A stretch of DNA of 64,000 nt from an uncultured archaeon (lineage in GTDB: Archaea > Asgardarchaeota > Lokiarchaeia > Sigyniarchaeales > SOKP01). The notes beneath the pieces are model-generated. The model did no database searches and was not told the DNA's origin. It saw nothing but the letters and a program-made list of their open reading frames with translations. The stretch lies in the NCBI GenBank assembly GCA_964525635.1, contig CAZGJX010000002.1, forward strand, positions 6,224 through 70,223. Direction: 5' to 3'. A program made the position numbers and the translations under genes. The first letter of the stretch is position 1; each line of letters starts with the position of its first letter. Below are positions 1 to 58,224 of the stretch, in pieces.

Positions 1-925
1 TTATATGAATAAACTTTGCATTTGGAAATAATTTATATAAGAATTTTAATTCCAAAATATTATTCGGAGTTTTTTCACACCAAATCTTTTTTTTCTCTTC
101 ATGTAGCTTTTTAAGAAATAATGATTCAACTAGATTTCTACATAAACTTAAGTATTCTTCTTCATGGAACTTTTTTGGAATTATGATTTTATTTTTATTA
201 TAATTACATAATGTTCTTATATAGGAGAATAATCTTTTAATATCATGATAACAATCATTTATCCTATATTTATATGGTCTTTTATAAAATAAAATACTCT
301 TGTATAATGTATGAAATAGAAAAAACTTATATTTTTTTTTTAATCTTAATCTTTTTATTAATACTGTAAAGTCTTTTTCTAAATATTCCTTATATTCTGG
401 AAAATATCGTAAAAATAGAATTTTAAGAATTCTAATTTTAATATGGGATACTTTTAAAAATAAGCTAATAAAATAGGCAATTATACTGTGAATGGGATGA
501 TATTCAGATCTAATTGAAGATATAGTATAATAGTTTCTGCTATAAGCTATATCATAATATAGACTTTTAATAAAATCTGACATTATTGTTGTATAGAATT
601 TTTTACCATAGAAATTTCGAATATCTCCTCTATTTGGATAAGTCTTTGATGATATTTTATCAACTAACATTTTTTTTGAAAACCGATAAATAGCAATATC
701 TGCTTTATTTGGATGGTATGAATAACATAAATGGGTTGCTAAATCCTTTAATCCATCACATTCTATTATAAAACGTGTTTCTTGGGGAATTGAATAGATT
801 TCTGGATGTTTTCCTAACAATTCTCTTAGAATTGTAGTCCCACTCTGTCCAGAACCTCCTAAAAAAATTTTTAAACTTATTTCATTCAAATTAGATTCAA
901 ACACCCTTTCTTGGGAGATTTTCAA
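1..925 (-). CDS. sulfotransferase family protein (partial: 3' end runs off the window; start uncertain, TTG 925 or GTG 904)
   Basis: Own minus-strand translation; it is absent from the ORF track because it has no ATG. ...LKIFLGGSGQSGTTILRELLGKHPEIYSIPQETRF... carries the GxxxSGTT PAPS 5'-phosphosulfate-binding loop. ...IWCEKTPNNILELKFLYKLFPNAKFIHI is typical of this family. The frame is still open at position 1. Confidence 0.65.
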   Translation of the reverse strand, partial: MKISQERVFESNLNEISLKIFLGGSGQSGTTILRELLGKHPEIYSIPQETRFIIECDGLKDLATHLCYSYHPNKADIAIYRFSKKMLVDKISSKTYPNRGDIRNFYGKKFYTTIMSDFIKSLYYDIAYSRNYYTISSIRSEYHPIHSIIAYFISLFLKVSHIKIRILKILFLRYFPEYKEYLEKDFTVLIKRLRLKKKYKFFLFHTLYKSILFYKRPYKYRINDCYHDIKRLFSYIRTLCNYNKNKIIIPKKFHEEEYLSLCRNLVESLFLKKLHEEKKKIWCEKTPNNILELKFLYKLFPNAKFIHI

Positions 926-932
926 TTTTAAT

Positions 933-1985
933 TTATTTCTCGATGATATTAACTATTCTTTTCATAATTATATTCCAATTATAATTTTTAACAACAAAAT
1001 TCATCCCTTTATAAGCTATATTTTCTCTTAAATCTTTGTTTTTCAAATAATATTCAATTTTATTTAGCAATTCTTTTTTTGTATTAAACCAATCTAAATG
1101 TTCTTTTTTTTTAAAGAATAATTCTAAATCTTTGCAATATTCCGTTAATAGAAATGAACCTGTACCCATTGCTTGAAAAACTCTAATAGAAAAACCATAT
1201 TTACCTTTTGTAAAATTTAAAATGATTCTCGAACTTCTATATAAATTAACTAATGTATCTAAATAAACTGGAGCAAGGTTCCAATCCTTACCAAAAGTAG
1301 TTGCGGAAATTCCATTATTCTTCAAATATTTAATATATATTTCACGTTTTATCGTTTTAGTTCCTATGAAAATCACGTCAATTTCTTTTTTTCGTTTTTT
1401 AGGATAAAATTTCTTAATATCCAAACCTTGAGTAATAAAATAACTATTTTTTTGCTTTCTTTTAAATAAACTGTAAATTGTAGAAAATGTAGCGCTTGAA
1501 TAATTACACAATGAAGAATATTTTTCAGCATTGAATTCAATAGCAACATTCAAAGGATCCATGAAAAAATACCAAGTCTTTCCGTATTTATTGATTTTTG
1601 GGATAAGCTTATAATTTATTCTATCTGATTTTGAAAGAAAAATTAGATCATATTTTTTTTTTTTTACTTCATTAATTAACTGTTTATTTACTTTCCATCT
1701 TCCATAAAGATAATATCTTTCAAATTCAGATAAAATTCTAAAAAATGAGATTTTATTTCTATATTTTTGATTTAGTTTTGATATTTTTTTAAAAAAAGTA
1801 GAGCAATAATTATTTATTGAAGATTTATAATGGCTATTTTTAATATTATTATTTTTTGCATTATTATTCTGTTTATATCGAAAATCAAAACATACAACTT
1901 TATGCCCTAAATTCTTTAATTCGTGAACCATTGGAATATTTGTTGACCATTTGTTATGAAATACTCCAACAAATAAAATCTTCAT
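933..1985 (-). CDS. glycosyltransferase, CgeB-like (GT1-type C-terminal domain)
   Basis: 350 aa. The C-terminal half GFSIRVFQAMGTGSFLLTEYCKDLELFFKKKEHLDWFNTKKELLNKIEYYLKN resembles the CgeB/Glyco_trans_1_2 family. It sits in a glycan gene context. Confidence 0.6.
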   Translation of the reverse strand: MKILFVGVFHNKWSTNIPMVHELKNLGHKVVCFDFRYKQNNNAKNNNIKNSHYKSSINNYCSTFFKKISKLNQKYRNKISFFRILSEFERYYLYGRWKVNKQLINEVKKKKYDLIFLSKSDRINYKLIPKINKYGKTWYFFMDPLNVAIEFNAEKYSSLCNYSSATFSTIYSLFKRKQKNSYFITQGLDIKKFYPKKRKKEIDVIFIGTKTIKREIYIKYLKNNGISATTFGKDWNLAPVYLDTLVNLYRSSRIILNFTKGKYGFSIRVFQAMGTGSFLLTEYCKDLELFFKKKEHLDWFNTKKELLNKIEYYLKNKDLRENIAYKGMNFVVKNYNWNIIMKRIVNIIEK

Positions 1986-2272
1986 TATTCTTCTTTATAA
2001 TCATATATTATATTCTGTTGATAATGTAAGATTGCTAAAAAAATTTTTTTATTATTTAATACATCAAAATTTTATAAACTTATATTTCATGGAAATTTAT
2101 TCAATTCCCATGTATTTCTTTTCTTATAGTAGATAATATATTCTTGATTCCTTTGATTTTAAATATATTATAAAAAAATTATAAGTATTATCAAATATTT
2201 TGTTAACTAATCTTATTACATTTGATTAAATTTATATATTCATTCTAAAATTGAACTTAGCTAAAAAATAAT

Positions 2273-3133
2273 ATGATGATAAAGCAAAATATTTTTAAAA
2301 ATCTATCCCAAACGAGTTTTTTTTTAAAAATGAGAAGGATTTTTTCAAAAACCTATGCTATCTCTGAAAAGAATATAAAAATGCAATTAAGGTTTAAATA
2401 CAGCTTAATAGTTGGTTATATAACTCCAATTTTATCTATATTAATGCCATTTTTTATATTCGGAAAACTTTTTGAAAATAGTATTGATATAGATCCATGG
2501 AATGCACATAACGCTCCTATATTTATACTTATTAGTTATAATATCTTGCTTATGCGTCGTATGGTAGTTAATATTCCTTCAAGGTTGAATGAAGAAAAAT
2601 TTTGGAAAACTATAACTGCTTTAATTGTAGCTCCATTTAATAGGTTTTATTTATTAATTGGTTATTTTATATCTGAATTTTTTATTATGGTTTTTCCGTT
2701 TGTGATTATATCTGTTATTCTATTTATTTTTTGGCCAATTTCTATAATGACGGCCTTAATTATTATTCTAATGTATATATCTATTGCTTTGATATTTTGT
2801 GGTATAAGTCTAATTGTAGGTGCTTTTGCTCTTACTAATGAAAACATATGGGGCATTTTAAGATTTTCAATATCTTTTATTTTTATAGTTAGTTGTGTAT
2901 CTTATCCTTTTCAAATGTACCCGGGTATAGCTCAAGAAGTTATAAAATATAATCCAATCTACTATATTATCGATATTTTGAGATTAACATGGATAGAGAA
3001 TTCTATCATTGATACTATTACCTTACATCCATTTCATTTTATTGTTTATTTTTCCTCCATTTTTATATTTCCTATTGTGGGAGTATATTTGTTTAATTAT
3101 ATATTTAAAAAATTGGGAATTCAAGGGTATTAA
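2273..3133 (+). CDS. ABC-2 type transporter permease (Wzm/TagG-like)
   Basis: 286 aa with about 6 hydrophobic helices. It lies immediately upstream (5-nt gap) of an ABC ATPase. Confidence 0.7.
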   Translation: MMIKQNIFKNLSQTSFFLKMRRIFSKTYAISEKNIKMQLRFKYSLIVGYITPILSILMPFFIFGKLFENSIDIDPWNAHNAPIFILISYNILLMRRMVVNIPSRLNEEKFWKTITALIVAPFNRFYLLIGYFISEFFIMVFPFVIISVILFIFWPISIMTALIIILMYISIALIFCGISLIVGAFALTNENIWGILRFSISFIFIVSCVSYPFQMYPGIAQEVIKYNPIYYIIDILRLTWIENSIIDTITLHPFHFIVYFSSIFIFPIVGVYLFNYIFKKLGIQGY

Positions 3134-3138
3134 TTAAT

Positions 3139-4062
3139 ATGGAAGAAAAAAAAAAAATTATAGAAATATTTAACCTATCGAAGACCTATCATTTAAAAAA
3201 AAAAAATAAATTTATATCAGCTTTAGATGATGTCAATTTAAAAATTGCAGAAGGTGAAAAATTTGGGTTATTAGGACCAAATGGAGCAGGAAAAACAACA
3301 ATGGTTAAAATATTAACGACTCTAATTCAACCAACTAAAGGATATGCTATAATTGATGGATATAATATTCTAAAAAAACCCTCACAAGTTAGAAATAAAC
3401 TTGTATTGATGCTTGGAAATGAAATGATTTATTATAGACTTACTGGATATAGTAATCTAAAATTTTTTGCAAAGATATATCAAATATCGAATTATAAAGA
3501 AAAGATATATAATATTACTAAAGACTTTGGAATAGATAAATGGCTTCATGAATATGTAGAAAGATATTCGACAGGGATGAAAGTTAAATTATCATTATGT
3601 AGAACTCTCTTATTAAATCCTAAAATCTTTTTTCTAGATGAACCAACATTAGGTCTTGATGTTAGTACAATTAATTATATAATTGATAAATTAAAAAAAT
3701 TAAATAAAACAATTTTTTTGACAAGTCATAATATGAATGTTGTTGAAAAATTATGTGATAGAATTGCATTTATCAATAAAGGTAAAATCAATGTTATCGG
3801 TGATAAAGAGTATCTTAAAGAACTTCTAACTCAAAAGATTGAAATAACGATTGAAATTACTATAAATAAAAATAATTTAAAAAATGAATTAAATGAAAAA
3901 TCCTTTATTACAAATATAACTGAATATAAAAATGGATTAATTGTTGAGTTAAATAAAAGAATAAATTATCCTGATTTGTTAGCAATTTTAAAAGATTATC
4001 CTATTACAAAAATAAGAGAAACAGAATTGAATATTGAAGATTTATTTCTCAAAATTATATAA
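3139..4062 (+). CDS. ABC transporter ATP-binding protein (ABC-2 exporter ATPase)
   Basis: Walker A GPNGAGKTT, signature-like YSTGMKVKLSL, Walker B IFFLDEPTLGLD, H-loop LTSHNM. Confidence 0.9.
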   Translation: MEEKKKIIEIFNLSKTYHLKKKNKFISALDDVNLKIAEGEKFGLLGPNGAGKTTMVKILTTLIQPTKGYAIIDGYNILKKPSQVRNKLVLMLGNEMIYYRLTGYSNLKFFAKIYQISNYKEKIYNITKDFGIDKWLHEYVERYSTGMKVKLSLCRTLLLNPKIFFLDEPTLGLDVSTINYIIDKLKKLNKTIFLTSHNMNVVEKLCDRIAFINKGKINVIGDKEYLKELLTQKIEITIEITINKNNLKNELNEKSFITNITEYKNGLIVELNKRINYPDLLAILKDYPITKIRETELNIEDLFLKII

Positions 4063-4077
4063 TATAGAAAAAAAAAT

Positions 4078-5334
4078 ATGAATATACTACTTCTCACTTT
4101 TAGTTTTTACCCAGAAAAAGGAGGAATCTCTCACACAATCAACTCAATGTGTAAATTCTTTAATGAAAAAGATCATACCTTCATAGTTTTAAACCCAAAT
4201 TACAATGGAAAAAATATTCATAATCTTCTGATTAGAGATCAAACTCTAAAGAAAGAGATAAAAAAAATCTTTCATAAAAAATTTCTTCTTTCCTTATATA
4301 TTATCATAAAAAATTTGTTTCGAAAAAACAATATTCCTTTATTAGAAAGATTAAATTTAATTTTATATTTATTTCTAAAACCAAAAATATTAATTAGAAC
4401 AGTAGAGAATTTTCAAAAATTCTATCCATTTCTTCAAAAAACAAATTTCAATTTGATTGTTACTGCTGATTGTGGATTCCCACTTGTGTTGGGATTAATC
4501 ATATCAAAAACATTTAACAAAAAAATAGTGTCTTTAGCTCATGGTATTGATTTTCAAATAGAAAATTATTTTTCATTAAAATATTTTTATTTAAAAAACA
4601 CTGATTTTTTTATACTTAGCAATATTTGGTTAAAAAAACTTTTTCAAAAAATATATGATATAAATGACAAGAAAATTGATATAATAAACCGTGGTATGTT
4701 TTTGGAGGATTATTTCATAGAGAAATCCAAAGAAACACTTCGAATTGAAAATAATATTCCTATTGATAAATTTCTCTTGTTAAGTGTTGGTCGACAAAAT
4801 AAAAGAAAAAATTATCAATTAGTTATTAGAGCAATAAGAAAAATTAAAGATATAAGACTAAACTTTAATGGATTATATTATTTAATTGGTGAAGGGGATT
4901 ACACTTCAAATTTGAAGCATTTAGTTATAGAATTAGATCTCTCAGAAGATATAAAATTCTTAGGGATACTTGAAAATAAAAAAAGAAATGAATTCTATAA
5001 AATGTCAGATATATTTTTAATGCCTTCATTAACAGAAAAAAATGACGTTGAGGGATTTGGTATAGTTTTTCTTGAAGCAAATTACTATAAGGTTCCCGTA
5101 ATTGGTTCTACATCTGGAGGTATTGTAGAAGCTATTAAAGATGGAGAGAATGGGATTTTAGTAAATCCACGTAATTTAGATGATATAGTAAATAAAATAT
5201 TATATCTATATGATAATAAAGATCAGAGGATAAAAATGGGGGAGATAGGACATCAAAGAGTTATTAAGGACTATGATTGGACTAATATTGGGAAAAAATA
5301 TGAAAAAACATTTAAAAAAGCAATTAATTTTTAA
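4078..5334 (+). CDS. glycosyltransferase family 4 (GT-B, Glycos_transf_1)
   Basis: E-x7-E region EGFGIVFLEANYYKVPVIGSTSGGIVEAIKDGENGILV; 418 aa. Confidence 0.85.
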   Translation: MNILLLTFSFYPEKGGISHTINSMCKFFNEKDHTFIVLNPNYNGKNIHNLLIRDQTLKKEIKKIFHKKFLLSLYIIIKNLFRKNNIPLLERLNLILYLFLKPKILIRTVENFQKFYPFLQKTNFNLIVTADCGFPLVLGLIISKTFNKKIVSLAHGIDFQIENYFSLKYFYLKNTDFFILSNIWLKKLFQKIYDINDKKIDIINRGMFLEDYFIEKSKETLRIENNIPIDKFLLLSVGRQNKRKNYQLVIRAIRKIKDIRLNFNGLYYLIGEGDYTSNLKHLVIELDLSEDIKFLGILENKKRNEFYKMSDIFLMPSLTEKNDVEGFGIVFLEANYYKVPVIGSTSGGIVEAIKDGENGILVNPRNLDDIVNKILYLYDNKDQRIKMGEIGHQRVIKDYDWTNIGKKYEKTFKKAINF

Positions 5335-5388
5335 TTGATTTGAATTTTATATTATATTAAATTCAAAATTAAAATAATAATAGCAAAG

Positions 5389-6636
5389 ATGTTCACACTC
5401 AATCAAATAATATCTTTTAACCGTATTTTTAACCTGATGTCATCAATATGGTTTATTATTTTTATGATTTTTCTTATAATTATATATCATTTGATTATAT
5501 ACTTAATCAGAGATAAGAAGTATATTATTGATTATAATAGTTATAATGATCCAGATAATGTATCTATTGATGATCTAAATTATCTGCCACTTGTTAATAT
5601 TATTATTCCATCATGGAAAGAGGGACAAAATTTTAAAGTATGTTTAGATTCAATTAAAAACTTATCATATCCTAAATTAAAAGTTATAATAAATGCAGGA
5701 GGAAATGATGAGACGATAAAAATTGCAAACACTTTCAAACAATATGATAATTTTATAATATTACATCAGAAATTTGGAGCAGATAGACCATCTTTAGGTA
5801 AGATAAGAGCAATAAATGAATGTCTTGATTATATTAAAGATGGTTTAATATATTTTATAGATGCAGATGCAATTGTACAAGATGAAACCCTGTTAAGAAT
5901 TATTTATCCAATAGTTAATCAAGAAAAATATGTAGTAGTTTCAGGGAGAAGTTTAACAGATTCACTAAAAGAAAAAGCTCTTTCTAAATATCTAAGATTA
6001 AATCGAAACAGAACATTTCATGGTGATTTTTCAAGAAATGATCATAATATAATCTCTGGTTCGAATACATGTATTAAGTATGAAGTTATTGAGAGAATCA
6101 GTAAGTTCAATGAAGAAAGAGGGATTGCTACAGATAAATCTATGGCACTTGATATTAATAATGTTGGATACAAAATTTATAAATTAACACATCCAAATTC
6201 AAGAATGCTAAACCAGAACATGCCAAGTAATTTTAAAGCATGGAGACGTCAGAGATCTATATGGCAAACAAATGATTTTAAATACATTATTAAATTTAAA
6301 AAAAGAGGAAAATTCCTAAAGTTTTTATTTTTAACTTTTTTGTCTCTTTATTTATTGATTTTTCCTATATTTTTATTTTTTAATATTACCTTATTTCTGT
6401 TTGGATTTTATTTATTAATTTGGATATATTTTCAGAAAATTAGAAAGATTATTTTTTCTCTTAACACAGATGAAAAAGAATCTGGTTTTGATATTAATCT
6501 AATCTTTTATTTTAAAGTATTTTGTTTTATTTTATTAGAACTATATATCAATATAATATTGATATATGATCTTATAGTATATTTTAAAAAAAATAAAAAA
6601 AAAACTGAAAAAGTGATATTTTTTTTCCAATTATAG
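5389..6636 (+). CDS. membrane-embedded glycosyltransferase family 2 (synthase-like architecture)
   Basis: N-terminal TM helix, then a GT-A core (VNIIIPSWKEGQNF, DADA as the DxD motif). WRRQRSIW sits where the Q(Q/R)xRW motif would be, followed by several C-terminal TM helices. Confidence 0.75.
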   Translation: MFTLNQIISFNRIFNLMSSIWFIIFMIFLIIIYHLIIYLIRDKKYIIDYNSYNDPDNVSIDDLNYLPLVNIIIPSWKEGQNFKVCLDSIKNLSYPKLKVIINAGGNDETIKIANTFKQYDNFIILHQKFGADRPSLGKIRAINECLDYIKDGLIYFIDADAIVQDETLLRIIYPIVNQEKYVVVSGRSLTDSLKEKALSKYLRLNRNRTFHGDFSRNDHNIISGSNTCIKYEVIERISKFNEERGIATDKSMALDINNVGYKIYKLTHPNSRMLNQNMPSNFKAWRRQRSIWQTNDFKYIIKFKKRGKFLKFLFLTFLSLYLLIFPIFLFFNITLFLFGFYLLIWIYFQKIRKIIFSLNTDEKESGFDINLIFYFKVFCFILLELYINIILIYDLIVYFKKNKKKTEKVIFFFQL

Positions 6637-6812
6637 ATTCTTCCTTTTCGGATTTCTATTTCGAGATAGAAGCTTTTTATAATAGACTATTATATATTAT
6701 ATTTATCTGTTTTTTTGATAAAGATAAATTTATAAAAAAAAAACAATTTACGAACTCAAGAATTTTTATCATCTAAAAAGATAAGATAGTAAAATGATTT
6801 AATTAAAAATCA

Positions 6813-7592
6813 TTGAGAATTAATATGATAATTTCTCATAAAAATAAGTTTATTTACATAAAAACGAGGAAAACTGCAAGTACTTCTATACAAATTCTTT
6901 TCGCTAGGTTTTGTGGGGATCAAGATATTTTAACTCCAATTATTCATCCGACTACTAAAAAAGGCATCATATATAATAAAATGGCAAGAAATTATAAGAT
7001 ATTAATAAGTAACTTAAAACTTATAAAATATAGTTTTTATTATAGTATTAGGAAGGGTAGAGGACTAAGTTTTATCAAGGATTTTTTAAAAACTATCTTT
7101 AAAAATCCAAAGAAAAATATATATAGATTATTTTTTCAAGGATTTCACACTCATGATTCTGCTGAGAAAATTAAGACCAAAGTAGGGTCCATAATATGGA
7201 ATGATTATTTTAAATTTACTTTTGAAAGAAATCCTTGGGATAAATTAGTATCATATTATTATCATGTGTACTCAAATTCAGATCCTTCTTTTAAGAATTT
7301 TGATACATGGATAAAATCCTTGAAAATGAACCAATATAGACAACCTTATAATTTTCTTTTATATACTTTTAAAAATAGAGTAATTTTAGATTTTATTGGA
7401 AAATATGAGAATTTACATAAGGATTTAAATTTTATTTTAAATAAATTAAACTTACCAATGAAAGAATTACCTAAAGAAAAAACAAATTATAGAAAAGAAA
7501 AGAAATATAAGAAATACTATAGTGATGAATTAAGAGATTTAGTCAATAAAAAATACGCAAAAGAAATAAACCTTTTCAATTTTAAATTTTAA
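6813..7592 (+). CDS. carbohydrate sulfotransferase-like protein (Sulfotransfer_2-type)
   Basis: KNKFIYIKTRKTASTSIQ matches the N-terminal PAPS-binding motif (xPKTGGTS type). FERNPWDKLVSYY matches the RNPWDRLVS motif of this family. The start is more likely ATG 6825 than TTG 6813. Confidence 0.65.
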   Translation: MRINMIISHKNKFIYIKTRKTASTSIQILFARFCGDQDILTPIIHPTTKKGIIYNKMARNYKILISNLKLIKYSFYYSIRKGRGLSFIKDFLKTIFKNPKKNIYRLFFQGFHTHDSAEKIKTKVGSIIWNDYFKFTFERNPWDKLVSYYYHVYSNSDPSFKNFDTWIKSLKMNQYRQPYNFLLYTFKNRVILDFIGKYENLHKDLNFILNKLNLPMKELPKEKTNYRKEKKYKKYYSDELRDLVNKKYAKEINLFNFKF

Positions 7593-7642
7593 AAATTTTA
7601 TACAAATTATTTTTTCAAATCTAAATTCTAATTAAAGGAAAA

Positions 7643-9175
7643 TCATTGATTTTGATTTTTAAAGCAATTAAGAATATTGCCTTTTAAATCTTGATTTATA
7701 GGTAATCCAAAGTAATTTAATATAGTTGGGACAATATCTTTTAGATTTGCGTGGGTTTTCATATTTTCTTTTACATTTTTTCCATGAATCACTAATATAC
7801 CTTCTTCACTATGTTTTCCAATTGCAAAATCAGTATATTTACTAATATCTTGAAGAAATTCTTCTGTATTTTGGTAAAGGCTAGTGAAAGAATATCCTTT
7901 CGTTGGTTTTATTATTAAATCGGGGATTAATTCTGGTTGGTTACCACTATAATAATCATCTTTTTCATATATTTTATCAACAATTCTATTATTATTTTTT
8001 GGATCCTTTATTTGATAGAATTTATTTTTAAGATAATTTATGATTTTTAGTTTTTTTTCTCCTTCAGTTAAGATAAAAATTAATCCATAAAGACTGATTC
8101 CCATAGGATAAACTCTTGATTTTTTCCAATCTATAAAATTATTAAATACTTCTGTTCCTTTTAATTCGTTTCTGTATATTTTTAATTCTAACTTTTTAAA
8201 AACATTGAACAATGATATTTTATCTAATTTAAGTTTTATAATTATTTTTTTTGAAAGTTTTCTTAGAAGAGATTTCCAGAAATTGGTTTTAAATTTTAAT
8301 AAACCCTCTTTATAAAGCCAATCTCCCAATAGAAACTGTTTTTTATGAGATTCACATCCATGATCAGATAGAATTACAGTAAGTAAATCCCCTTTATTAT
8401 TTCTTAAAAATTCCTCTCTTAATGTTTCAATACAAAAATCTAACCATTTATGAAATGTTTTAAAAGCATATGATCTTATTTCAGGATTATATAATATGTT
8501 CTCTTTATCAAAGTATCCCCATAAAACATGTTGAAGTATATCATTAGCCTGAAAATTAACCATTAAGATATCAATTTTATAATTATTTAACAGCCATACG
8601 CATACTTTTGTTCTATCTTTTATATTTTTAATTCTATTTTCAATAAAATCTTTTATGTTGTAATGAGGATTTTTAAATCTCACATCTTCAGAATATTGAA
8701 ATTGATAATCAGGTATTTTATTTAAAATATTCTGCTTCAAGCTTGATGGATATGTAAAATTAGAATTTAAAGAAGGGGTTAATATACCACTAACAATAAA
8801 ACCATTTACTTTTTTTGGAGGATAGGTCATTGGGACATTAACTACCGCAATTTTCTTACCTACTTTGCTCAGAATCTCCCATATAGTATTTTTTAAGAAA
8901 TCAGAGTTAACCATATCTATATTTTTTGTCTTCTTATTAAAACAGTAAAATTCATAGATATGGTCTTCTAAGCAATCTCTCCCTGTTTGTATAGTACCCC
9001 ACGCTGCAGGAGATATTGGTGGTATGGTGGATGCTATCGGACCAAATGTACCATTAGATTTTAGTTTTTTTAAATATGGCATATATCCACTATCAATTAT
9101 ATCATTAAATAGGTCCCACGAGCCACCATCAAGACCTATAACAAGAATTTTTCTATTAAAAATATTCATTTCCAT
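7643..9175 (-). CDS. alkaline-phosphatase superfamily phosphohydrolase/phosphodiesterase (COG3379/Phosphodiest-like)
   Basis: N-terminal metal-ligand motif VIGLDGGSWD, nucleophile region STIPPISPAAWGTIQTG, and later LSDHGC. Confidence 0.75.
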   Translation of the reverse strand: MEMNIFNRKILVIGLDGGSWDLFNDIIDSGYMPYLKKLKSNGTFGPIASTIPPISPAAWGTIQTGRDCLEDHIYEFYCFNKKTKNIDMVNSDFLKNTIWEILSKVGKKIAVVNVPMTYPPKKVNGFIVSGILTPSLNSNFTYPSSLKQNILNKIPDYQFQYSEDVRFKNPHYNIKDFIENRIKNIKDRTKVCVWLLNNYKIDILMVNFQANDILQHVLWGYFDKENILYNPEIRSYAFKTFHKWLDFCIETLREEFLRNNKGDLLTVILSDHGCESHKKQFLLGDWLYKEGLLKFKTNFWKSLLRKLSKKIIIKLKLDKISLFNVFKKLELKIYRNELKGTEVFNNFIDWKKSRVYPMGISLYGLIFILTEGEKKLKIINYLKNKFYQIKDPKNNNRIVDKIYEKDDYYSGNQPELIPDLIIKPTKGYSFTSLYQNTEEFLQDISKYTDFAIGKHSEEGILVIHGKNVKENMKTHANLKDIVPTILNYFGLPINQDLKGNILNCFKNQNQ

Positions 9176-9201
9176 TCTCTAAATTCAACAATATTTTAAA
9201 A

Positions 9202-10506
9202 TTATTTTATAATCTCAAGACACTTACCAGTCATATAAGCAGGTTTTTGAATATTAAACAAATTTAATAAAGTTGGTGCAATATCTTCATAATTAATGCT
9301 ATTAAATTGTTTAGATTTTATATTTTTACCATATGCCATGAATAATCCTTCTTGTGTATGAAGAATTGCATTTCTTCCTTTTGTAATAAACATAGAAGGA
9401 TTATGATTAAACATATATTTTTCATTTAGAACTATGAATAGACTGGGGAAATCTTTTAAATTAGTAGAGATAATCTTTTTTATTTTTTTTTCCTTAAGAA
9501 GTGATTCAATAATTATTTTTTCTTTTTTTTTATCCTCTCCTTTCAAAAATAAACCACCAACATTTGAATTATAACTAAAAGCTTTTGATATCTCTATTTT
9601 ATTTTTATCAGTTTTTTTTTTTTTAGTATTACTTTTCTTTTTTTTTGATATTTTTTGAAATCTTTTTTTAAATAAATATAATTTTTCATAATCTATTTTT
9701 AATATTGGTCTAAAAAAATCATAGATTTTGGAAATAAGACTATATATTTTATGTTGACTTGATTTATTAATGAATATAAGACCTTTTTTTTCCAACCAAC
9801 GAGTCATATTAAAATCATGTTTATAAAATCTTAAACCATGATCACTAAATATAATTAGATTGTCAATTTCACCACTATTAAGAATCTGACCTATAAAATC
9901 ATCTATCTTTTTATATCCTAAATATATATAATTTTGAATTAATGGTTGAGATAGCCTAGTATGATGAGAAATAGAATCCGGCATCCTTACAACATAAGTT
10001 AATAGATTGTAATCTTCATATATTTTTTCTAAAAACAAATCTTTCTTTATTTTAAATGCCTTAAAGATGTCTTTTATTGTTTTTCCATTAATTATCCAAT
10101 TCTCTTTTAATTTGAATTCTAATTCCTTTGGAAAACAACTTATTTTAGGAGATAATAATCCTGTAATCATCTCACCATTAATATTCCACGCAGGATAGGT
10201 TCCTGGAACATTTAATACTAATTGTCTTAAATCCTTGTGTGAGAAAATAGATCTTTCTCTCCAAATAAATGAATTAAAAAGACCTTTTTCTGGATGAGTA
10301 AACCAATAATATCCAAGTTGTTGAGGATTTTGTCCAGAAAACATACAAGGCCAAGATGGAATTGTTATTGGTGGCATTGTAACGCAAAGTTTTGAAGATA
10401 CTCCCTCATTGATTATTTTTTTGAAATTAGGTAATATTTTTTTTTTTAATAGAGGTTTTATGGATTCAAAGCAACCACCATCAATACCTATTATTACATT
10501 TTTAAT
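9202..10506 (-). CDS. alkaline-phosphatase superfamily paralog; probable non-canonical ATT start at 10506
   Basis: The track ORF (9202-10377) starts at MPPITIPSWPCMFSG, in mid-domain. The frame stays open 43 codons further up and encodes IKNVIIGIDGGCFESIKPLLKKKILPNFKK, collinear with the N-terminus of the 7643-9175 paralog. That stretch contains no ATG/GTG/TTG. A GGGGAT motif lies 4 nt before ATT 10506..10504. Confidence 0.65.
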   Translation of the reverse strand: MKNVIIGIDGGCFESIKPLLKKKILPNFKKIINEGVSSKLCVTMPPITIPSWPCMFSGQNPQQLGYYWFTHPEKGLFNSFIWRERSIFSHKDLRQLVLNVPGTYPAWNINGEMITGLLSPKISCFPKELEFKLKENWIINGKTIKDIFKAFKIKKDLFLEKIYEDYNLLTYVVRMPDSISHHTRLSQPLIQNYIYLGYKKIDDFIGQILNSGEIDNLIIFSDHGLRFYKHDFNMTRWLEKKGLIFINKSSQHKIYSLISKIYDFFRPILKIDYEKLYLFKKRFQKISKKKKSNTKKKKTDKNKIEISKAFSYNSNVGGLFLKGEDKKKEKIIIESLLKEKKIKKIISTNLKDFPSLFIVLNEKYMFNHNPSMFITKGRNAILHTQEGLFMAYGKNIKSKQFNSINYEDIAPTLLNLFNIQKPAYMTGKCLEIIK

Positions 10507-10726
10507 TTAAATCCCCTAATCTTTCTTATTATTCTTGATCTATCTTATATTATGGAAATATATCATTTAAATAAAAGTTTTTGTTCTTTTTATTCAAGAT
10601 CATTAATTAAATGTTTATAAAATATTTTATATAAGATTTAGTTAATTTAAAAAGATAAAATCATATAATTGGATCTTTTTCTCTGGAAAATAGATTAAAA
10701 ATCATTATTTTGTATATAATATTATT

Positions 10727-11785
10727 CTACATTAATAGACCACTGATGAATTTAAAATATTCTTCAGCAGCTTTTTCCCATGAATATATCTTAACAATTT
10801 CAAGACCTCTTTCCCTCATACTTATTCTTAAATCTTGATCCTTATAAATATCGATGATTAATTCTGCTAATTTTTTATAATTAAAAGGAGGAAAATAAAT
10901 CGGAAAGTCTTTATATATTTCCCTAAATACAGGAATATCTGAACATAAAACTGGGAGTCCAGAGGAGGCAGACTCTAGCCCAGGTGCCCCCCATCCTTCG
11001 TATATAGAGGGAAAGACTAGAATATTGCATAAATTATAGATTTCTCTCAATCTATCATTAGTTATTCCATTTAAATAAATAATATTTTTTTCCAATCCCA
11101 TTTTTTTTATTAAATCTTGGAAAATTGGTTTACCAATCCGGATTAATAAAATCTTTTTTATTCTTTTTTTAACAATATAATAGGATTTTAATAATGATAG
11201 AAAATTTTTTCTCGTTTCTTCTGTTCCTACATGTAATATTTTAAAATATTCAGGATAAAATGAATTAATTTTTAATAATTTTTCATCAGATATTGGATAA
11301 AACATCTTTTTATTTATACCATTTTTAATAACTTTTATTTTTTCTTTTGGAAAACCTAATCTTTTAATCAATTCATTTTTAGTAAATTCTGATATTGCGA
11401 TAATATATCTACATTTCTTTAATCCTGAAAGTATATATTTTTGCAATAAAGAATTATTTCGAATATTTTTTTTTTCCAAAAAAGTATAAATATCATGACA
11501 AGTGACAATTGTTTTTGATTTATCAAGAAAATGTACTAAATCACTATGAAATTGAGCAGGTATATGATTAATAACTTCATTTTTATTGCTACTTAATTTA
11601 CACTGTATTGGATAATTAAAAAATCTCTTATATAAGAAATCGATTTGGTTTTTGGGTGGTTTATAGTATAAATAAGAGATTCCAATATTTCTTTGGTTTA
11701 TTAATCGTTTATCTAATTCAATTTGTCTTCTTAAGATTCCATTTATATTATCTAACTTTCTACCAATATAATTTAATATTTCCAT
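10727..11785 (-). CDS. glycosyltransferase family 4 (GT-B)
   Basis: YEGWGAPGLESASSGLPVLCSDIPVFREIY (E-x7-E region); 352 aa. Confidence 0.85.
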   Translation of the reverse strand: MEILNYIGRKLDNINGILRRQIELDKRLINQRNIGISYLYYKPPKNQIDFLYKRFFNYPIQCKLSSNKNEVINHIPAQFHSDLVHFLDKSKTIVTCHDIYTFLEKKNIRNNSLLQKYILSGLKKCRYIIAISEFTKNELIKRLGFPKEKIKVIKNGINKKMFYPISDEKLLKINSFYPEYFKILHVGTEETRKNFLSLLKSYYIVKKRIKKILLIRIGKPIFQDLIKKMGLEKNIIYLNGITNDRLREIYNLCNILVFPSIYEGWGAPGLESASSGLPVLCSDIPVFREIYKDFPIYFPPFNYKKLAELIIDIYKDQDLRISMRERGLEIVKIYSWEKAAEEYFKFISGLLM

Positions 11786-11880
11786 ATTACAATATTAAAG
11801 AAATAACATTTTTTTTATGAAATAGCAATGATATTAACCATTTAAAGAGGAGATCTTAGAAAAAATTTATTATCCTAAAA

Positions 11881-12609
11881 TTAGAGATTTAATTCTTTTT
11901 TTTGAATTTGAATTAATTCCCCTATCCCCTTTTCTCCAATATCTAAAATTCTGTTTAATTGTTTTCTGGTAAAACTATTTCCCTCAGCTGTTCCCTGAAT
12001 TTCTAAAAATTCTAAATTTTCATTCATTATAAGATTTAAATCAACATCAACTTGAGAATCTTCAATATAATTTAAGTCTAATAGGATATCATCATCTTTA
12101 ATTCCTAATGAAATCGCAGCTGTTACTTTATAATTAGGAAAGTTATGAATAAGGTGTTCATCATAAAGAAAACTAATAGCATCAAAAACAGCCATAAATG
12201 CTCCTGTTATTGAAGCACATCTTGTTCCACCATCAGCTTGAATAACATCACAATCGATTTTTATTGTTCTTTCTCCTATTTTTGTAATATCAAAAGCTGC
12301 TCGAATACTCCTTCCTATTAATCTCTGAATTTCATGTGTTCGACCTTTAACTCTTAATCTTTCTCGTTCTCTACTATTTCTATTTTGTGTAGCACGAGGG
12401 ATCATATTATATTCTGCAGTTATCCACCCGGTACCTGTATCAGATAAAAATCGTGGGACAAACTCTAATACCGAAGCAGTAACTATAACCTTAGTAAAAC
12501 CTTGTGTTATAAGTACAGATCCTTCAGGATATTTAAGATAATTACGCTCAATTGTAATTTTTCTGAGCTCATCAAATTCCCTACCATCCTTTCTTTTAAT
12601 ATTGGACAT
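11881..12609 (-). CDS. rph: ribonuclease PH (bacterial Rph-type)
   Basis: 242 aa, collinear with E. coli Rph as I recall it: GRTHEIQRLIGRSIRAAFD, IKIDCDVIQADGGTRCASITGAFMA, EIQGTAEG. Confidence 0.9.
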   Translation of the reverse strand: MSNIKRKDGREFDELRKITIERNYLKYPEGSVLITQGFTKVIVTASVLEFVPRFLSDTGTGWITAEYNMIPRATQNRNSRERERLRVKGRTHEIQRLIGRSIRAAFDITKIGERTIKIDCDVIQADGGTRCASITGAFMAVFDAISFLYDEHLIHNFPNYKVTAAISLGIKDDDILLDLNYIEDSQVDVDLNLIMNENLEFLEIQGTAEGNSFTRKQLNRILDIGEKGIGELIQIQKKELNL

Positions 12610-12885
12610 AATAATTTACATATTTATTATTCTTTATTGTATCAATAAAAAAAAAGAAAATAAAATCTTAAATATATAAAACAGAAAATATTAATATATT
12701 TTTACAAAGCAAATAGTATATGATAATAACTTTTTTTTTTTATTCCAAATTTATGTCTTCCAAATTCTAGATTTTAATAATTATTTTAATAGACTAACTA
12801 GAAAAATATGAAGATTATTTAAAAAGCTATAAAATCTAAAAATAAATTCAGATAATTTTCTTGTAAAATTTCTCATAATATGAAT

Positions 12886-18093: not shown

Positions 18094-18145
18094 CTTTTTT
18101 AAAAATGAAGGAATCTAAAAAGAATTAAAGAAATATATTTTCAAA

Positions 18146-18568
18146 TCAAGAATTTTTTATGGATATATTTTCTTTTTCATTGGAAATTGTTGAACCTTTT
18201 AATTTTATACAGTAAATTTGAGTTATTTCCATGGAATTATAACATTTATCACAATTTTCAATTTTTTTATAAACATAATCTCCTTCTTCATAATGCCTTA
18301 CTTTTGTAATATTACATTTTTTGCATTTTGTAATTGTTAAGGTTTGTCTCTTTGGTTCAGAAGGTTCACTTTGTATTTGCAATAAACTACTTCCAAAACA
18401 AATAAATGTGAAGCCTATGATATATTTATAAGCGTCATTCTCAATGATTGGACTGATAATAAATACTCCTCCTAAAATTATGAAAATTATAATAACAACA
18501 TGTTTTAATACTTTCTTCCAAGATATCTTATTATTTAAGATATCATCTTCATTTTCTTCTTCAATCAT
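18146..18568 (-). CDS. hypothetical membrane protein with C-terminal zinc ribbon
   Basis: Two TM helices, then CKKC-x20-CDKC. Confidence 0.45.
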   Translation of the reverse strand: MIEEENEDDILNNKISWKKVLKHVVIIIFIILGGVFIISPIIENDAYKYIIGFTFICFGSSLLQIQSEPSEPKRQTLTITKCKKCNITKVRHYEEGDYVYKKIENCDKCYNSMEITQIYCIKLKGSTISNEKENISIKNS

Positions 18569-21000: not shown

Positions 21001-21681
21001 ATGATAGAGCAAAAAGATTTAAAGAAAATTGAAGAAATCGCATGGAAATCCAATTTTGAACATGGTTTATGGGATATGTTATATGGGATTTTTTTAATTA
21101 TGACTATATTAATTAATTATTTAATGTTTTTTATGTATGATATAATTGATATAGCTAGTGAATATGTTCCCTTAATTTCTATAATTCTTGTTTTGAGTAT
21201 TATCTTTGCAATAGGTTTTCTTTTTAGATATTTATACGGATTGGTAGGTGTACCAAGAGTGGGATATGTAAAATATAGCCTAAAACGTAAGAGATTCTTA
21301 TATATAACTATAATTGGATTATTATTATACTTTATTTTTGTTTATATCTATGTAATCTACATATTTAACCTAATAGAGGAGAATCTAAATATAAAATATC
21401 TTATTTATATTTTACCTTTAATAAATGGTTTAATTATTTATATTATTCCTACTTGCATTGTTGCTTATTTTCTTGCATTCAAAAGATTATACGTATATGG
21501 ATTATTTGCAGGATTAGTGGAACTAATTAATGAACTTCTATTCGATATATTTGATACATTCTATTATTTTAGGGATTTATTAATGTCAATAGTTGGTTTA
21601 TTTATTATTAGTATTGGATTCATATTTTTTATTGTATTCCTCAAGAAGTACCCAAAAACAAACAAAAAGGGAGAGAAATGA
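21001..21681 (+). CDS. polytopic membrane protein, paralog A
   Basis: The N-terminus MIEQKDLKKIEEIAWKSNFEHGLWDMLYG is shared with the next ORF. About 6 TM helices. Confidence 0.6.
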   Translation: MIEQKDLKKIEEIAWKSNFEHGLWDMLYGIFLIMTILINYLMFFMYDIIDIASEYVPLISIILVLSIIFAIGFLFRYLYGLVGVPRVGYVKYSLKRKRFLYITIIGLLLYFIFVYIYVIYIFNLIEENLNIKYLIYILPLINGLIIYIIPTCIVAYFLAFKRLYVYGLFAGLVELINELLFDIFDTFYYFRDLLMSIVGLFIISIGFIFFIVFLKKYPKTNKKGEK

Positions 21682-22334
21682 TAGAGGTAAAATTTTTAAA
21701 AAAAATGGAAAAAAAAATCTGGAAATCAAATTTTAAACATGGATTATGGGATATATTATTTGGTACAATATTAATTATCCTTATCCCAACTCACTATTTT
21801 ATTGGTAATATTGCTTTAAGAATAACTATGGGTCATCATTCATTTATTTTTTGGTACGTTTTTCTTGGTTTTTCTTGTTTAACTGGATTATGTATTTTGT
21901 TTAAATATTTAAGTGATACCTTGATTTCTGAAAGGGTTGGATTTGTGAAATATAGAGCAAATCGTAAAATAATATTGAAAAAGATGATAATTTTATGCAT
22001 AATTTATCTAGGAGTTATTCTTTTGTTCTTTGGATATATTTATACAAAACTTATATATCCCATAATGGGAAATGATCGATTTTTTAATGCTATTTGTGCA
22101 GGTTTAATGATATTTCTTATTCCCTGTAGTATTACCGCTTATTTAATTGAATTTAAAAAGCTGTATATATATGGATTATTAACAGCAATAGGTACCTTAG
22201 TTAATGAAATCTTTGGATATTTTATAGGTAAATCCTATCCATTTTTAATATTATTAATAATTGGTTCAATAATTGTCTGTATAGGAATTTTAATATTTAT
22301 AAGATTCCTTAAGAAATATCCAAAATCAGTATGA
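21678..22334 (+). CDS. polytopic membrane protein, paralog B
   Basis: MIEVKFLKKMEKKIWKSNFKHGLWDILFG. ATGA start/stop overlap with paralog A. Confidence 0.6.
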   Translation: MIEVKFLKKMEKKIWKSNFKHGLWDILFGTILIILIPTHYFIGNIALRITMGHHSFIFWYVFLGFSCLTGLCILFKYLSDTLISERVGFVKYRANRKIILKKMIILCIIYLGVILLFFGYIYTKLIYPIMGNDRFFNAICAGLMIFLIPCSITAYLIEFKKLYIYGLLTAIGTLVNEIFGYFIGKSYPFLILLIIGSIIVCIGILIFIRFLKKYPKSV

Positions 22335-23748: not shown

Positions 23749-24642
23749 TTGAAATCATCAATGAGTCTATTTAAACTTTGTATAAATGAAAAGGATAATG
23801 AAATTTTAAATAAGCTTAAACAACATTTAAATGTTAAAAATATACGCTATTATAACATTAGAGATGATATCCTTGGTAAAATTACACAATCAGGATTTGC
23901 TTTAGAAAATGGTTCAATAATTAAATTATGGATTATATCTACCAATATCACATCACTACCAGATGAAATTTATCAATTAGATAATCTAGAGAAATTAGTG
24001 TTTAAGAATTTAGATATTCATAATATAAGTAATTCTGTTGAGCATCTTTCACAGTTAAGTTCTCTCTCTATAAATAATTGTAGAATAAATAAACTCCCTC
24101 TTAGTTTTGAAAATTTAACTAATTTACGTATATTGGATTTAAGTAATAATTTACTAGAAGAATTACCTCAGAACATAGGAAAATTAAACAATTTAGAATT
24201 TTTATGGTGTAATGAAAATAAGATATCTTCACTTCCAGAAGGTATTGGAAATTTATCAAATCTTAAACTTTTATCAATAAATAATAATCTTCTCTCCGCC
24301 ATTCCTCCTTCAATTGAAAAATTATCCAATTTAGAAGCTATACAGGGTTCAAATAATCAATTAATTTCACTTCCAGAAGGTATTGGAAATTTATCAAAAT
24401 TAAGGACAATTAACATAGAAAATAATCAGATTTCTTCTCTCCCCGATTCAATAGGTAATTTAGAGAATCTAGGAGAATTAAAGTTATATAACAATCAACT
24501 TCATGATCTCCCAATTTCAATAAAAAATTGCAATAATATTTATAATATTACTCTTGGTAAAAATCCCTTAACAGATTCAAAAGAAATAAAAAAAAAGGTA
24601 GTCAAACTAATTCCCAAAAAAACTAGTATACTATGGGAATAG
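23749..24642 (+). CDS. leucine-rich repeat protein (about 9 x 23-aa LRRs), no signal peptide
   Basis: Repeats of LxxLPxxIGNLxNLxxLxLxxNxL, e.g. LPEGIGNLSNLKLLSINNNLLSAIP. The start may be ATG 23761. Confidence 0.9.
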   Translation: MKSSMSLFKLCINEKDNEILNKLKQHLNVKNIRYYNIRDDILGKITQSGFALENGSIIKLWIISTNITSLPDEIYQLDNLEKLVFKNLDIHNISNSVEHLSQLSSLSINNCRINKLPLSFENLTNLRILDLSNNLLEELPQNIGKLNNLEFLWCNENKISSLPEGIGNLSNLKLLSINNNLLSAIPPSIEKLSNLEAIQGSNNQLISLPEGIGNLSKLRTINIENNQISSLPDSIGNLENLGELKLYNNQLHDLPISIKNCNNIYNITLGKNPLTDSKEIKKKVVKLIPKKTSILWE

Positions 24643-58209: not shown

Positions 58210-58224
58210 AGAGGTATTTTCAAA

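Follow-up and report, generated by a model that had tools for sequence, protein, structure and literature searches.

In Halobacterium, oligosaccharides carried on dolichyl phosphate are sulfated and transiently methylated, and methylation of the lipid-linked glycan accompanies export, according to the works referenced in PMC11407970. In Haloferax, sulfation of a dolichyl-phosphate-linked hexose depends on Agl7, and the authors proposed that this sulfation may be needed for translocation (PMC3892788). Cyanobacterial sulfotransferases of the families PF03567 and PF13469 lie mostly inside polysaccharide clusters of the Wzx/Wzy type or the ATP-binding cassette (ABC) type (PMC8205485). Here we describe a gene cluster that carries both sulfotransferase families in an uncultured Asgard archaeon of the class Lokiarchaeia, at positions 1-11785 of a 64,000-nucleotide stretch of DNA (GenBank assembly GCA_964525635.1, contig CAZGJX010000002.1, positions 6,224 to 70,223 of the forward strand; hereafter the window). 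Together with its continuation beyond position 1, this cluster forms an island that, in our assessment, is likely to make a sulfated, probably also methylated, glycoconjugate and to move the product across the membrane. The reading rests on gene content, protein families, catalytic motifs, folds, adjacency to genes for the sulfate donor 3'-phosphoadenosine 5'-phosphosulfate (PAPS), operon spacing and conservation; from these we infer which lipid serves as carrier, in what order the steps run, what the glycan is finally attached to and what the alkaline phosphatase (AlkP)-superfamily enzymes do. A literature search found no report of Asgard sulfotransferases or of PAPS use, and within the searchable literature this is the first description found of a glycan cluster with PAPS sulfotransferases in Asgard archaea.

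Sulfate activation and extent of the island

Gene content was taken from an open reading frame (ORF) listing and a Pfam scan, in which all ten ORFs of positions 1-11785 exceeded the Pfam gathering score. As a first-pass annotation of the sequence had described, these comprise sulfotransferases of two families, four glycosyltransferases (GTs), an ABC-2 permease and ATPase, and two tandem genes of the AlkP fold, in three transcription units by gene orientation (divergent at 1985/2273, convergent at 7592/7643). That annotation, which proposed a locus for the assembly and export of a sulfated glycan, had seen no genes for PAPS synthesis in the window, and Pfam scans of the 64 kb likewise detected no sat, cysC, cysH or STT3 (the last in ORFs of at least 120 aa, with contig L001, introduced below, also scanned). 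The genes for sulfate activation lie just beyond. A contig lookup with the CgeB-like protein of the cluster led to four contigs; two of them, L001 (JGI 3300031654, 9,813 bp) and L002 (Logan SRR9707989), come from independent assemblies, match window 1-3412 at 100% identity and agree with each other, also at 100%, over 6.5 kb. Past position 1 both continue with the remainder of the sulfotransferase gene ST-A, a Sulfatase-family gene, a further sulfotransferase (ST-B), an FkbM methyltransferase, a 79-aa ribbon-helix-helix-like protein (RHH79), ATP sulfurylase (Sat) and adenosine 5'-phosphosulfate kinase (CysC), spanning about -6151 to -352 in window coordinates. Sat and CysC are encoded 4.4-6.2 kb beyond the window start, with ST-B between them and the window, and both exceed their NCBIfam cut-offs (Sat, 503 bits against 387 for NF003166 and 388 against 323 for TIGR00339; CysC, 238 bits against 139 for TIGR00455). 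The lack of any route to PAPS had been named beforehand as grounds for giving up the proposed function; the route is present next to the cluster, and the NCBI contig that carries the window proteins likewise includes a protein identical to ST-A. The genes first assigned to 1-11785 are all there, but the cluster runs on for about 6.2 kb before position 1, which makes the island about 18 kb in total, with 1-11785 as its larger part.

The composition of the DNA sets the glycan genes apart. Within a window whose GC content ranges over 22-32%, they form a low-GC island (23.0% at 1-11785 vs 27.6% at 11786-64000), with per-gene values of 22-25.6% vs 28-32% for rrp41, the phenylalanyl-tRNA synthetase (PheRS) genes, sat, cysC and RHH79, and GC climbs from 24% to 31% at the core gene rrp41 (RNase PH, 11881-12609), the first gene past the cluster. 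Gaps within the plus-strand unit are 5, 15, 54 and 188 bp (permease-ATPase, ATPase-GT4a, GT4a-GT2 and GT2-ST2), and this spacing is compatible with co-transcription. A hydropathy scan, crude and with a 19-residue window, found no signal peptide or transmembrane anchor in any sulfotransferase, AlkP enzyme or GT4 and marked only the GT2 and the permease as membrane proteins. Scans of the window for tRNAs and Rfam families gave no matches, and a search over 1-12700 for operator-like repeats common to the intergenic regions returned only AT-rich chance matches.

RHH79 (L001 7565-7804, about window -4391 to -4152) lies directly upstream of sat and matches no Pfam or NCBIfam family above threshold. 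It always adjoins sat, and its conservation in the Asgard contigs L090 and L092 (82-85% identity) exceeds that of sat itself (64-70%); it may be a regulator of the sulfate-activation genes. Extension past cysC was attempted by searching metagenome contigs with the last 45 bases of L001. That end is a non-coding dispersed repeat of about 300 bp (L001 9568-9813), so the continuation past cysC is ambiguous. Copies 94-98% identical occur in this metagenome on five or more further contigs (L093, L095, L096, L097 and L098), which tend to end there; the 64-kb window has none.

Sulfotransferases

ST2 (Sulfotransfer_2, PF03567; 6813/6825-7592, plus strand) matches its Pfam profile over positions 3-252 of 252 (E 3e-13, 51 bits against a gathering score of 22). 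Its frame is open from a TTG at 6813, and the start is most likely the ATG at 6825, since every homologue starts with MIISHK. Residues invariant among 25 aligned homologues are K16 and T17 of the 5'-phosphosulfate-binding (5'-PSB) motif (K-T-x-x-T-S, with the catalytic Lys) and H110, R135, N136, P137, D139 and S143, which include the 3'-phosphate-binding (3'-PB) RNPWD...S motif. A search of PDB with ST2 alone gave nothing meaningful, as did one with the permease, and a profile built from ST2 homologues gave weak matches confined to the 3'-PB region of cytosolic sulfotransferases, where RNPWD..VS aligns with RNPKD..VS. For the AlphaFold model (predicted local distance difference test score, pLDDT, 90), the 50 Foldseek PDB matches listed are all of the sulfotransferase fold (PAPS sulfotransferases and retinol dehydratase), with probabilities of up to 1.0, but with TM-scores of only 0.4-0.5 and a best E of 2e-3. 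Alignment and model support the assignment of ST2 as a PAPS sulfotransferase with intact PAPS motifs and a predicted activity on carbohydrate.

Asgard archaea are the closest prokaryotic relatives of eukaryotes, and ST2 had initially been described as a type best known from eukaryotic carbohydrate sulfation. The homologues do not bear this out. Asgard relatives at 41-52% identity are followed by bacterial matches (Bacillus/Neobacillus, Symploca, Halieaceae), and no eukaryotic protein is among the named matches in the top 120. A scan of species-representative genomes for the subfamily found at least 560 encoding stretches, mostly bacterial, and of the loci among the matches listed, 76 are bacterial and 4 archaeal, with identities of 30-40%. 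By these matches the subfamily is common in bacteria, its distribution does not appear eukaryote-like and its closest relatives outside Asgard archaea are bacterial; a special link to eukaryotic carbohydrate sulfotransferases is not supported.

ST-A (Sulfotransfer_3, PF13469; 1-925, minus strand) is cut at the window edge, with 308 N-terminal residues inside (E 4e-16 on this part). The full gene (L001 2488-3765; 425 aa from a TTG, called as 418 aa) matches PF13469 at 92.5 bits against 27 (E 6e-26). A failure of the two window enzymes to align with PAPS-binding residues had likewise been named as grounds for giving up the proposed function, and the alignments do not bear it out. ST2 retains the expected residues; ST-A does so only in part: its 3'-PB motif, KRDPRELVYS, is conserved, but its 5'-PSB motif reads GGSGQSGTT, with a non-basic Gln in a column occupied by Arg in 15 of 16 aligned sequences. 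Gln in place of this near-invariant Arg makes the activity of ST-A less certain. The protein also carries an insertion of about 75 aa found in none of 15 aligned homologues, and only 18 relatives were found among 5.8 billion proteins. ST-B (Sulfotransfer_3; L001 5362-6363, 333 aa) scores 46 bits against 27 over profile positions 7-213 of 216, and both PAPS motifs can be read from its sequence (DRSGHS and RNPYDNIIAMS).

Glycosyltransferases and the ABC-2 transporter

The membrane-bound GT2 (5389-6636, plus strand) matches Pfam GT2 families at E 1e-13 to 1e-15, among them a match at 9e-15. It has hydrophobic segments at residues 22-40, 312-330 and 369-399, one N-terminal and at least two C-terminal, and a degenerate QxxRW motif (QRSIW). 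Its best NCBIfam match is PgaC_IcaA (E 4e-16, far below the cut-off), with NodC at E 8e-5, and residues 61-301 align with PDB 6yv7, a Pyrobaculum GT2 that we take to be a non-processive archaeal N-glycan mannosyltransferase with a minimal cellulose-synthase-like fold. We class the enzyme by these features as a putative membrane-embedded GT2 of the cellulose-synthase-like, PgaC or PcManGT type. Each of the four related Asgard clusters contains an orthologue, at 38-45% identity.

Three further glycosyltransferases accompany it. The CgeB-like enzyme (Glyco_trans_1_2, PF13524; 933-1985, minus strand; E 5e-24) has a 48% identical orthologue in another glycan cluster, on contigs L101/L102, near the same ABC pair. 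GT4a (Glycos_transf_1; 4078-5334, plus strand; E 1e-37) has orthologues at 42-45% identity in L007, L092 and L102, the last of which keeps the permease-ATPase-GT4 order. GT4b (10727-11785, minus strand; Glycos_transf_1 E 4e-25, Glyco_transf_4 E 3e-13) is the last gene of the cluster before rrp41, and its 59% identical orthologue adjoins an orthologue of AlkP1 in L006. Both GT4 enzymes have weak matches to diacylglycerol glycosyltransferases and to synthases of lipoteichoic acid (LTA)-anchor glycolipids, which are far below cut-offs and generic to GT4.

The permease (ABC2_membrane, PF01061; 2273-3133, plus strand; 40.7 bits) is the first gene of the plus-strand operon and is followed by the ATPase (ABC_tran, PF00005; 3139-4062, plus strand; E 3e-27). 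Four hydrophobic segments of the permease exceed the threshold, and few proteins belong to its subfamily (at E ≤ 1e-3, 147 among 1.84 billion representatives). The first-pass annotation had compared the pair with Wzm/Wzt, a comparison that does not hold up at the subfamily level: against a genuine Wzm and a genuine Wzt with a Wzt_C domain, both from contig L099, the permease gives a non-significant E of 0.26 and the ATPase 30% identity (85 bits), the Pfam scan found no Wzt_C domain in the ATPase, and no chain named Wzt is among its top 60 PDB matches. The best solved relatives of the ATPase are instead the nucleotide-binding domains of ABCA3 and ABCA1 (E 1e-58, 200 bits), with a weak DrrA1-3_C match (E 5e-4) and an NCBIfam drrA score of 232 bits, below the cut-off of 312. 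The nearest relative of the permease (52%) lies in L101/L102 (26% GC) in the same order, with the ATPase at 61%, GT4a at 42% and the CgeB-like enzyme at 48% nearby, in a cluster that is otherwise different (NeuB, Epimerase_2, methyltransferases and glycosyltransferases). Tight spacing and the same order in another glycan cluster tie the pair to the glycan genes, and it would be a dedicated glycan-cluster transporter of ABC-2 architecture. Related Asgard clusters carry a Wzx-like flippase where the ABC pair sits here, which argues that the substrate is a lipid-linked glycan in need of flipping.

AlkP-superfamily enzymes

AlkP1 (Phosphodiest, PF01663; 7643-9175, minus strand; E 1e-27) falls into a COG3379-type group whose sole annotation is "AlkP superfamily phosphohydrolase/phosphomutase", with Asgard members at 50-63% and Planctomycetes members at about 35-40% identity. 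D16, D212, H216, D271, H272 and H455 are invariant in this family, as is a Ser or Thr at position 55 (S55 here, Thr in the consensus). The two-metal site is complete (Asp, Asp-x3-His, Asp-His, His) with a Ser/Thr nucleophile, and the same motifs can be read in AlkP2. In Foldseek the AlkP1 model (pLDDT 88.5) matches ENPP5, ENPP6, ENPP4 and ENPP7, PhnA and the Xac nucleotide pyrophosphatase/phosphodiesterase (NPP) at E values of about 1e-17 to 1e-14 (down to 4e-17). Its identity to NPPs of solved structure is only 11-15%, some 130 residues are inserted in it, and the hydropathy scan showed no transmembrane segment or signal-like N terminus. Neither AlkP enzyme has a characterised close relative (the best NCBIfam match is PhnA, at 24 bits against 408), and a literature search on COG3379 found no functional information.

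AlkP2 (9202-10377 as listed, coding region to 10506; minus strand) is a paralogue of AlkP1 that matches PF01663 (E 9e-15) from profile position 41. Its frame is open for 43 codons upstream of the ATG at 10377, and this upstream part holds the in-frame sequence IKNVIIGIDGG with the metal-binding Asp, so that a start at 10377 would drop the first metal-binding strand. Orthologues align over the whole extended length at 43-51% identity and likewise lack an ATG, GTG or TTG. In four AlkP2-type genes (window 10377-10509, minus strand; L007 at about 11630-11680; L090 at about 18110-18160; and L007 at about 8320-8390, minus strand), none of these three codons occurs between the upstream in-frame stop and the strand (I/L)(K/R)N(I/V)(I/V)xGIDGG. 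In the alignment, all four share one position at which ATA or ATT precedes A(A/G)(A/G) AAT, with a purine-rich Shine-Dalgarno-like stretch shortly upstream (GGGGAT, GGTGAT, GGCGGATGA and AGAGGG). This suggests a conserved AUA or AUU initiation codon in AlkP2-type genes. Database gene callers used CTG or ATT starts for such genes, and the ORF listing begins 43 codons too late. We rejected the reading of AlkP2 as a 5'-truncated pseudogene: the 43 open codons, at 23% GC, encode a conserved metal-binding strand, and three other orthologues or paralogues are arranged alike. With AlkP2 starting near 10506 rather than 10377, and ST2 probably at 6825, the ten ORFs otherwise stand as first annotated.

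The third member, the sulfatase-like protein of the extension (L001 3871-5316, 481 aa; Pfam Sulfatase E 5e-37), has N-T-P-P-A at the C/S-x-P-x-R position, where orthologues have E-T-P-S-S or N-T-A-P-S, and scores 130 bits against an arylsulfatase model with a cut-off of 481. The missing C/S-x-P-x-R motif marks it as like a phosphoesterase or transferase with a Thr nucleophile and not as a formylglycine sulfatase.

Homologues of the AlkP enzymes adjoin Wzx-type flippases in Sedimentisphaera and in Hodarchaeota. On the bacterial contig L099 (ERZ21862665 ctg8812c), a single operon (7036-12605) encodes Wzm and a Wzt with Wzt_C together with a GT2, an AlkP1 homologue and a short protein of the sulfatase family. 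In bacteria, then, the pair of AlkP-superfamily genes also accompanies classical ABC-dependent glycan export, and by gene neighbourhood these enzymes clearly belong to glycan pathways. On L090 a third NPP-fold gene (Phosphodiest, 462 aa) stands between sat and cysC (4612-6000), a gene order that hints at a functional tie between the NPP-fold class and PAPS metabolism. The three AlkP-superfamily enzymes of the island, predicted to be cytoplasmic and conserved among its members, probably make or break a phosphoester or pyrophosphate bond; one possibility is a phospho-substituent on the glycan, another the removal of 3'-phosphoadenosine 5'-phosphate (PAP), pyrophosphate (PPi) or nucleotide by-products.

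Recurrence in other Asgard genomes

These sets of genes are found again on five or more further contigs, which indicates that they are not grouped by accident. For two proteins of the cluster, the best homologues that carry a name come from metagenome-assembled genomes labelled "Promethearchaeota archaeon" (a phylum that NCBI places in the archaeal kingdom Promethearchaeati); Hermod- and Hodarchaeota come next. The richest counterpart, L090 (Promethearchaeota, GCA_048938005.1), carries cysC (83% identity), the NPP gene, sat (70%), RHH79 (82%), ST2 (51%), a weak Polysacc_synt match (Wzx-like), a GT4, GT2 (39%), a CmcI methyltransferase, a sulfatase-like gene (35%), AlkP2 (43%) and another GT4, and ends at the RNase PH gene. 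On L092, genes for dTDP-sugars, methyltransferases, GT2s, a Sulfotransfer_3 and a Polysacc_synt protein accompany ST2 (44%), GT4a (45%), RHH79 (85%) and sat (64%), and on L006 (Promethearchaeota) GT4b (59%), AlkP1 (62%) and GT2 (45%) occur together. The Hodarchaeota contigs L007/L008 share the flank of the window, with a cytidylyltransferase, PheRS alpha and beta, chorismate mutase and RNase PH (77%); there follow a GT4, three Phosphodiest genes (including AlkP1 and AlkP2), two sulfatase-like genes, GT2 (38%), GT4a (42%), a Polysacc_synt gene, a sub-threshold sulfotransferase and then pentose-phosphate genes. The site next to rrp41 and PheRS also holds differently composed glycan clusters in Hodarchaeota and in another Lokiarchaeon, and transketolase genes bound the far side of the islands on L090 and L007.

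These contigs suggest that a low-GC set of glycan genes, variable in content, occupies a conserved place in the chromosome and is built from three modules: the CgeB-like enzyme, ABC pair and GT4a; GT2, GT4b and the AlkP enzymes; and sat, cysC, RHH79 and the sulfotransferases. A bolder proposal, which we regard as possible but doubtful, is that Asgard archaea of the Loki and Hod type maintain a hypervariable surface-glycan island at a fixed site, in whose conserved core glycosyltransferases are joined by cytoplasmic AlkP-superfamily enzymes (NPP-fold proteins and the sulfatase-like protein with a Thr nucleophile) that carry out an undescribed step of glycan synthesis, one of them translated from an AUA or AUU start. 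This step may be the installation of phosphodiester-linked substituents or the recycling of PAP and PPi so that PAPS-dependent sulfation runs. In that case the surface of Asgard cells would carry polyanionic, sulfated glycans whose enzymes are in part new.

The rest of the window encodes PheRS alpha and beta of the archaeal/eukaryotic type, the Rrp41-like RNase PH, a DUF1512 protein and RadA. It also holds genes of the eukaryote-signature type that is typical for Asgard genomes, namely a Ras/Roc-family GTPase with a 190-aa N-terminal extension (50011-51102), two leucine-rich repeat proteins (23749-24642 and 32524-34260) and a JAB/MPN protein with tetratricopeptide-like repeats (62021-63616). 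A 1,575-aa ORF at 44206-48933 (minus strand) has no Pfam match at E ≤ 0.001, and ORFs of 140-412 aa without a family lie at 18146-18568, 21001-22334, 26235-26846, 40888-42126, 57664-58716 and 59095-60228.

Proposed pathway and alternative explanations

In the pathway that we propose, Sat and CysC would turn sulfate into PAPS, and the four glycosyltransferases (the membrane GT2, the two GT4 enzymes and the CgeB-like GT-B enzyme) would use nucleotide sugars to build a glycan on a lipid carrier in the membrane, for which dolichyl phosphate is the most likely candidate. The FkbM methyltransferase and as many as three soluble PAPS sulfotransferases (ST2, ST-B and, if active, ST-A) would then decorate it on the cytoplasmic side; decoration is placed there, on the lipid-linked glycan, because PAPS and S-adenosylmethionine are found in the cytoplasm and these enzymes all lack features of secreted proteins. 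The ABC-2 pair, which shares a transcript with GT4a and GT2, would flip or export the finished lipid-linked glycan, a task for which related genomes would use a Wzx-like flippase, and the glycan would finally be passed to surface proteins by AglB or be kept as a surface polymer.

Several observations weigh against this pathway. The cluster encodes no priming phosphoglycosyltransferase, oligosaccharyltransferase (AglB/STT3) or nucleotide-sugar synthesis genes; AglB is often encoded away from glycan clusters. The ABC pair appears DrrAB/ABCA-like, which places it outside the Wzm/Wzt subfamily established for the export of lipid-linked glycans. ST-A may, judging from its Gln and unusual insertion, be inactive or impaired. 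The AlkP enzymes have no assigned substrate, and a phospho-modified glycan, as first envisaged, would be a guess. That sat and cysC adjoin the window is known from metagenome contigs that match it exactly over 3.4 kb, and not from the window itself. Finally, we know of no chemistry for any Asgard glycan.

Some of the same evidence can be read differently. It is unlikely, in our view, that the island makes a sulfated glycolipid of the membrane, in which the sugars sit directly on an archaeol-type lipid as in haloarchaeal S-DGD and S-TGD and which the ABCA-like pair would move to the outer leaflet. Sulfated glycolipids do occur in haloarchaea, the solved relatives closest to the ATPase come from the phospholipid transporters ABCA3 and ABCA1, the GT4 enzymes weakly resemble glycolipid synthases, and priming enzyme, Wzy polymerase and AglB are all missing from the cluster. 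The GT4 matches, however, are too low and too generic to discriminate, four glycosyltransferases, three sulfotransferases and a methyltransferase suggest a glycan larger than the known head groups of archaeal glycolipids, and the relatives carry Wzx/MOP-type flippases, which are established for polyprenyl-linked oligosaccharides. These flippases imply a lipid-linked unit and so also count against a free secreted sulfated oligo- or polysaccharide, either Nod-factor-like or synthase-dependent, in which the NodC/PgaC-like GT2 would polymerise the chain, the sulfotransferases and the methyltransferase would decorate it and a NodIJ/DrrAB-like pump would secrete it. We consider such a product highly unlikely. 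The arrangement of a GT2 domain between N- and C-terminal transmembrane segments would suit it, as would the PgaC_IcaA and NodC matches, a weak match of the permease to NodJ/DrrB, a match of the ATPase to NodI and the sole NCBIfam match of ST-A, to the Nod-factor sulfotransferase NoeE (E 1e-7), and PAPS genes beside sulfotransferases echo nodPQ/nodH. Yet all these matches are far below the family cut-offs, no equivalents of NodA or NodB were found, the QRSIW motif is degenerate, and the solved GT2 closest to ours, 6yv7, is presumably non-processive.

Least credible of all, to the point of being hardly worth entertaining, is a mosaic of genes that share no product, with sulfotransferases acting on small molecules or lipids, the ABC pair in drug or peptide efflux and the AlkP and sulfatase-family proteins in the scavenging of sulfated or phosphorylated compounds. 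The best family of the ABC pair is indeed daunorubicin-resistance DrrAB, an Asgard ST2 homologue on L091 stands alone among housekeeping genes, and bacterial ST2 loci share few other genes of the cluster. Against a mosaic stand the tight spacing that joins the ABC pair to GT4a and GT2 and the recurrence of the gene sets on other contigs, together with a sulfatase-family protein without CxPxR, AlkP proteins without secretion signals and no glycoside hydrolases. A locus for the degradation of sulfated glycans, suggested by the sulfatase-family and AlkP genes, was rejected on these last three grounds. The assembly and export of a sulfated, lipid-linked glycan, which was also the function first proposed, is the reading best supported by the adjacent PAPS route and the intact motifs of ST2.

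Significance and comparison with described systems

The gene set, with PAPS synthesis, three sulfotransferases, glycosyltransferases and an exporter, leads to the testable prediction that some Lokiarchaeia carry sulfated polyanionic surface glycans. It also offers candidate genes for archaeal glycan sulfation in general, a step that is poorly defined even in haloarchaea, and points to cytoplasmic NPP-like enzymes, as yet uncharacterised, that travel with polysaccharide flippases or transporters in archaea and Planctomycetes.

The haloarchaeal pathways (that of H. salinarum and the low-salt tetrasaccharide of H. volcanii, Agl5-Agl15 with Agl7) are likewise archaeal and combine glycosyltransferases with sulfation, methylation and a translocator; their glycan is built on dolichyl phosphate at the cytoplasmic face and sulfated while lipid-linked, with a flippase candidate in the cluster (PMC3892788). 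No sequence relationship of the island to Agl genes was shown; NCBIfam matches to AglJ, AglG and Agl16 are far below cut-off. The island differs in having its own PAPS genes, three recognisable sulfotransferases, three AlkP-superfamily enzymes and an ABC-2 transporter instead of the Wzx-like Agl15/AglR. The synechan xss cluster of Synechocystis 6803 resembles it in placing two sulfotransferase subfamilies among many glycosyltransferases and an export system. Unlike the island, xss is bacterial and plasmid-borne, uses Wzx, Wzy, a polysaccharide co-polymerase (PCP) and an outer-membrane polysaccharide exporter (OPX), includes a STAND/two-component regulator and has neither PAPS genes in the cluster nor AlkP enzymes; compared with synechan, the product of the island need not be a polymer.

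Wzm/Wzt pathways share with the island an ABC-2 (type V) permease and an ATPase co-transcribed with glycosyltransferases, and the completion and modification of the glycan in the cytoplasm before export, but the ATPase of the island is DrrA/ABCA-like and lacks Wzt_C, its permease has no significant similarity to Wzm, and there is no outer-membrane or ligase context. The rhizobial Nod-factor system (NodC, NodH/NoeE, NodPQ, NodS and NodIJ) likewise joins a membrane GT2, PAPS genes beside sulfotransferases, a methyltransferase and an ABC-2 exporter. The likeness is an analogy only: the NoeE, NodC, NodI and NodJ matches are weak and below cut-offs, and the island has no acyltransferase or deacetylase and has additional GT4 and AlkP enzymes. 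For AlkP1, the nearest described enzymes are those of the NPP/PhnA branch, which share its NPP fold, full two-metal site and Ser/Thr nucleophile, whereas AlkP1 differs in its predicted cytoplasmic location, its insertion of about 130 residues, its COG3379 type and its position beside polysaccharide flippases or transporters in Asgard archaea and Planctomycetes. Overall, the locus is of a known type, a prokaryotic glycan cluster with PAPS sulfotransferases, whose most unusual features are the uncharacterised AlkP-superfamily trio and the start of AlkP2.

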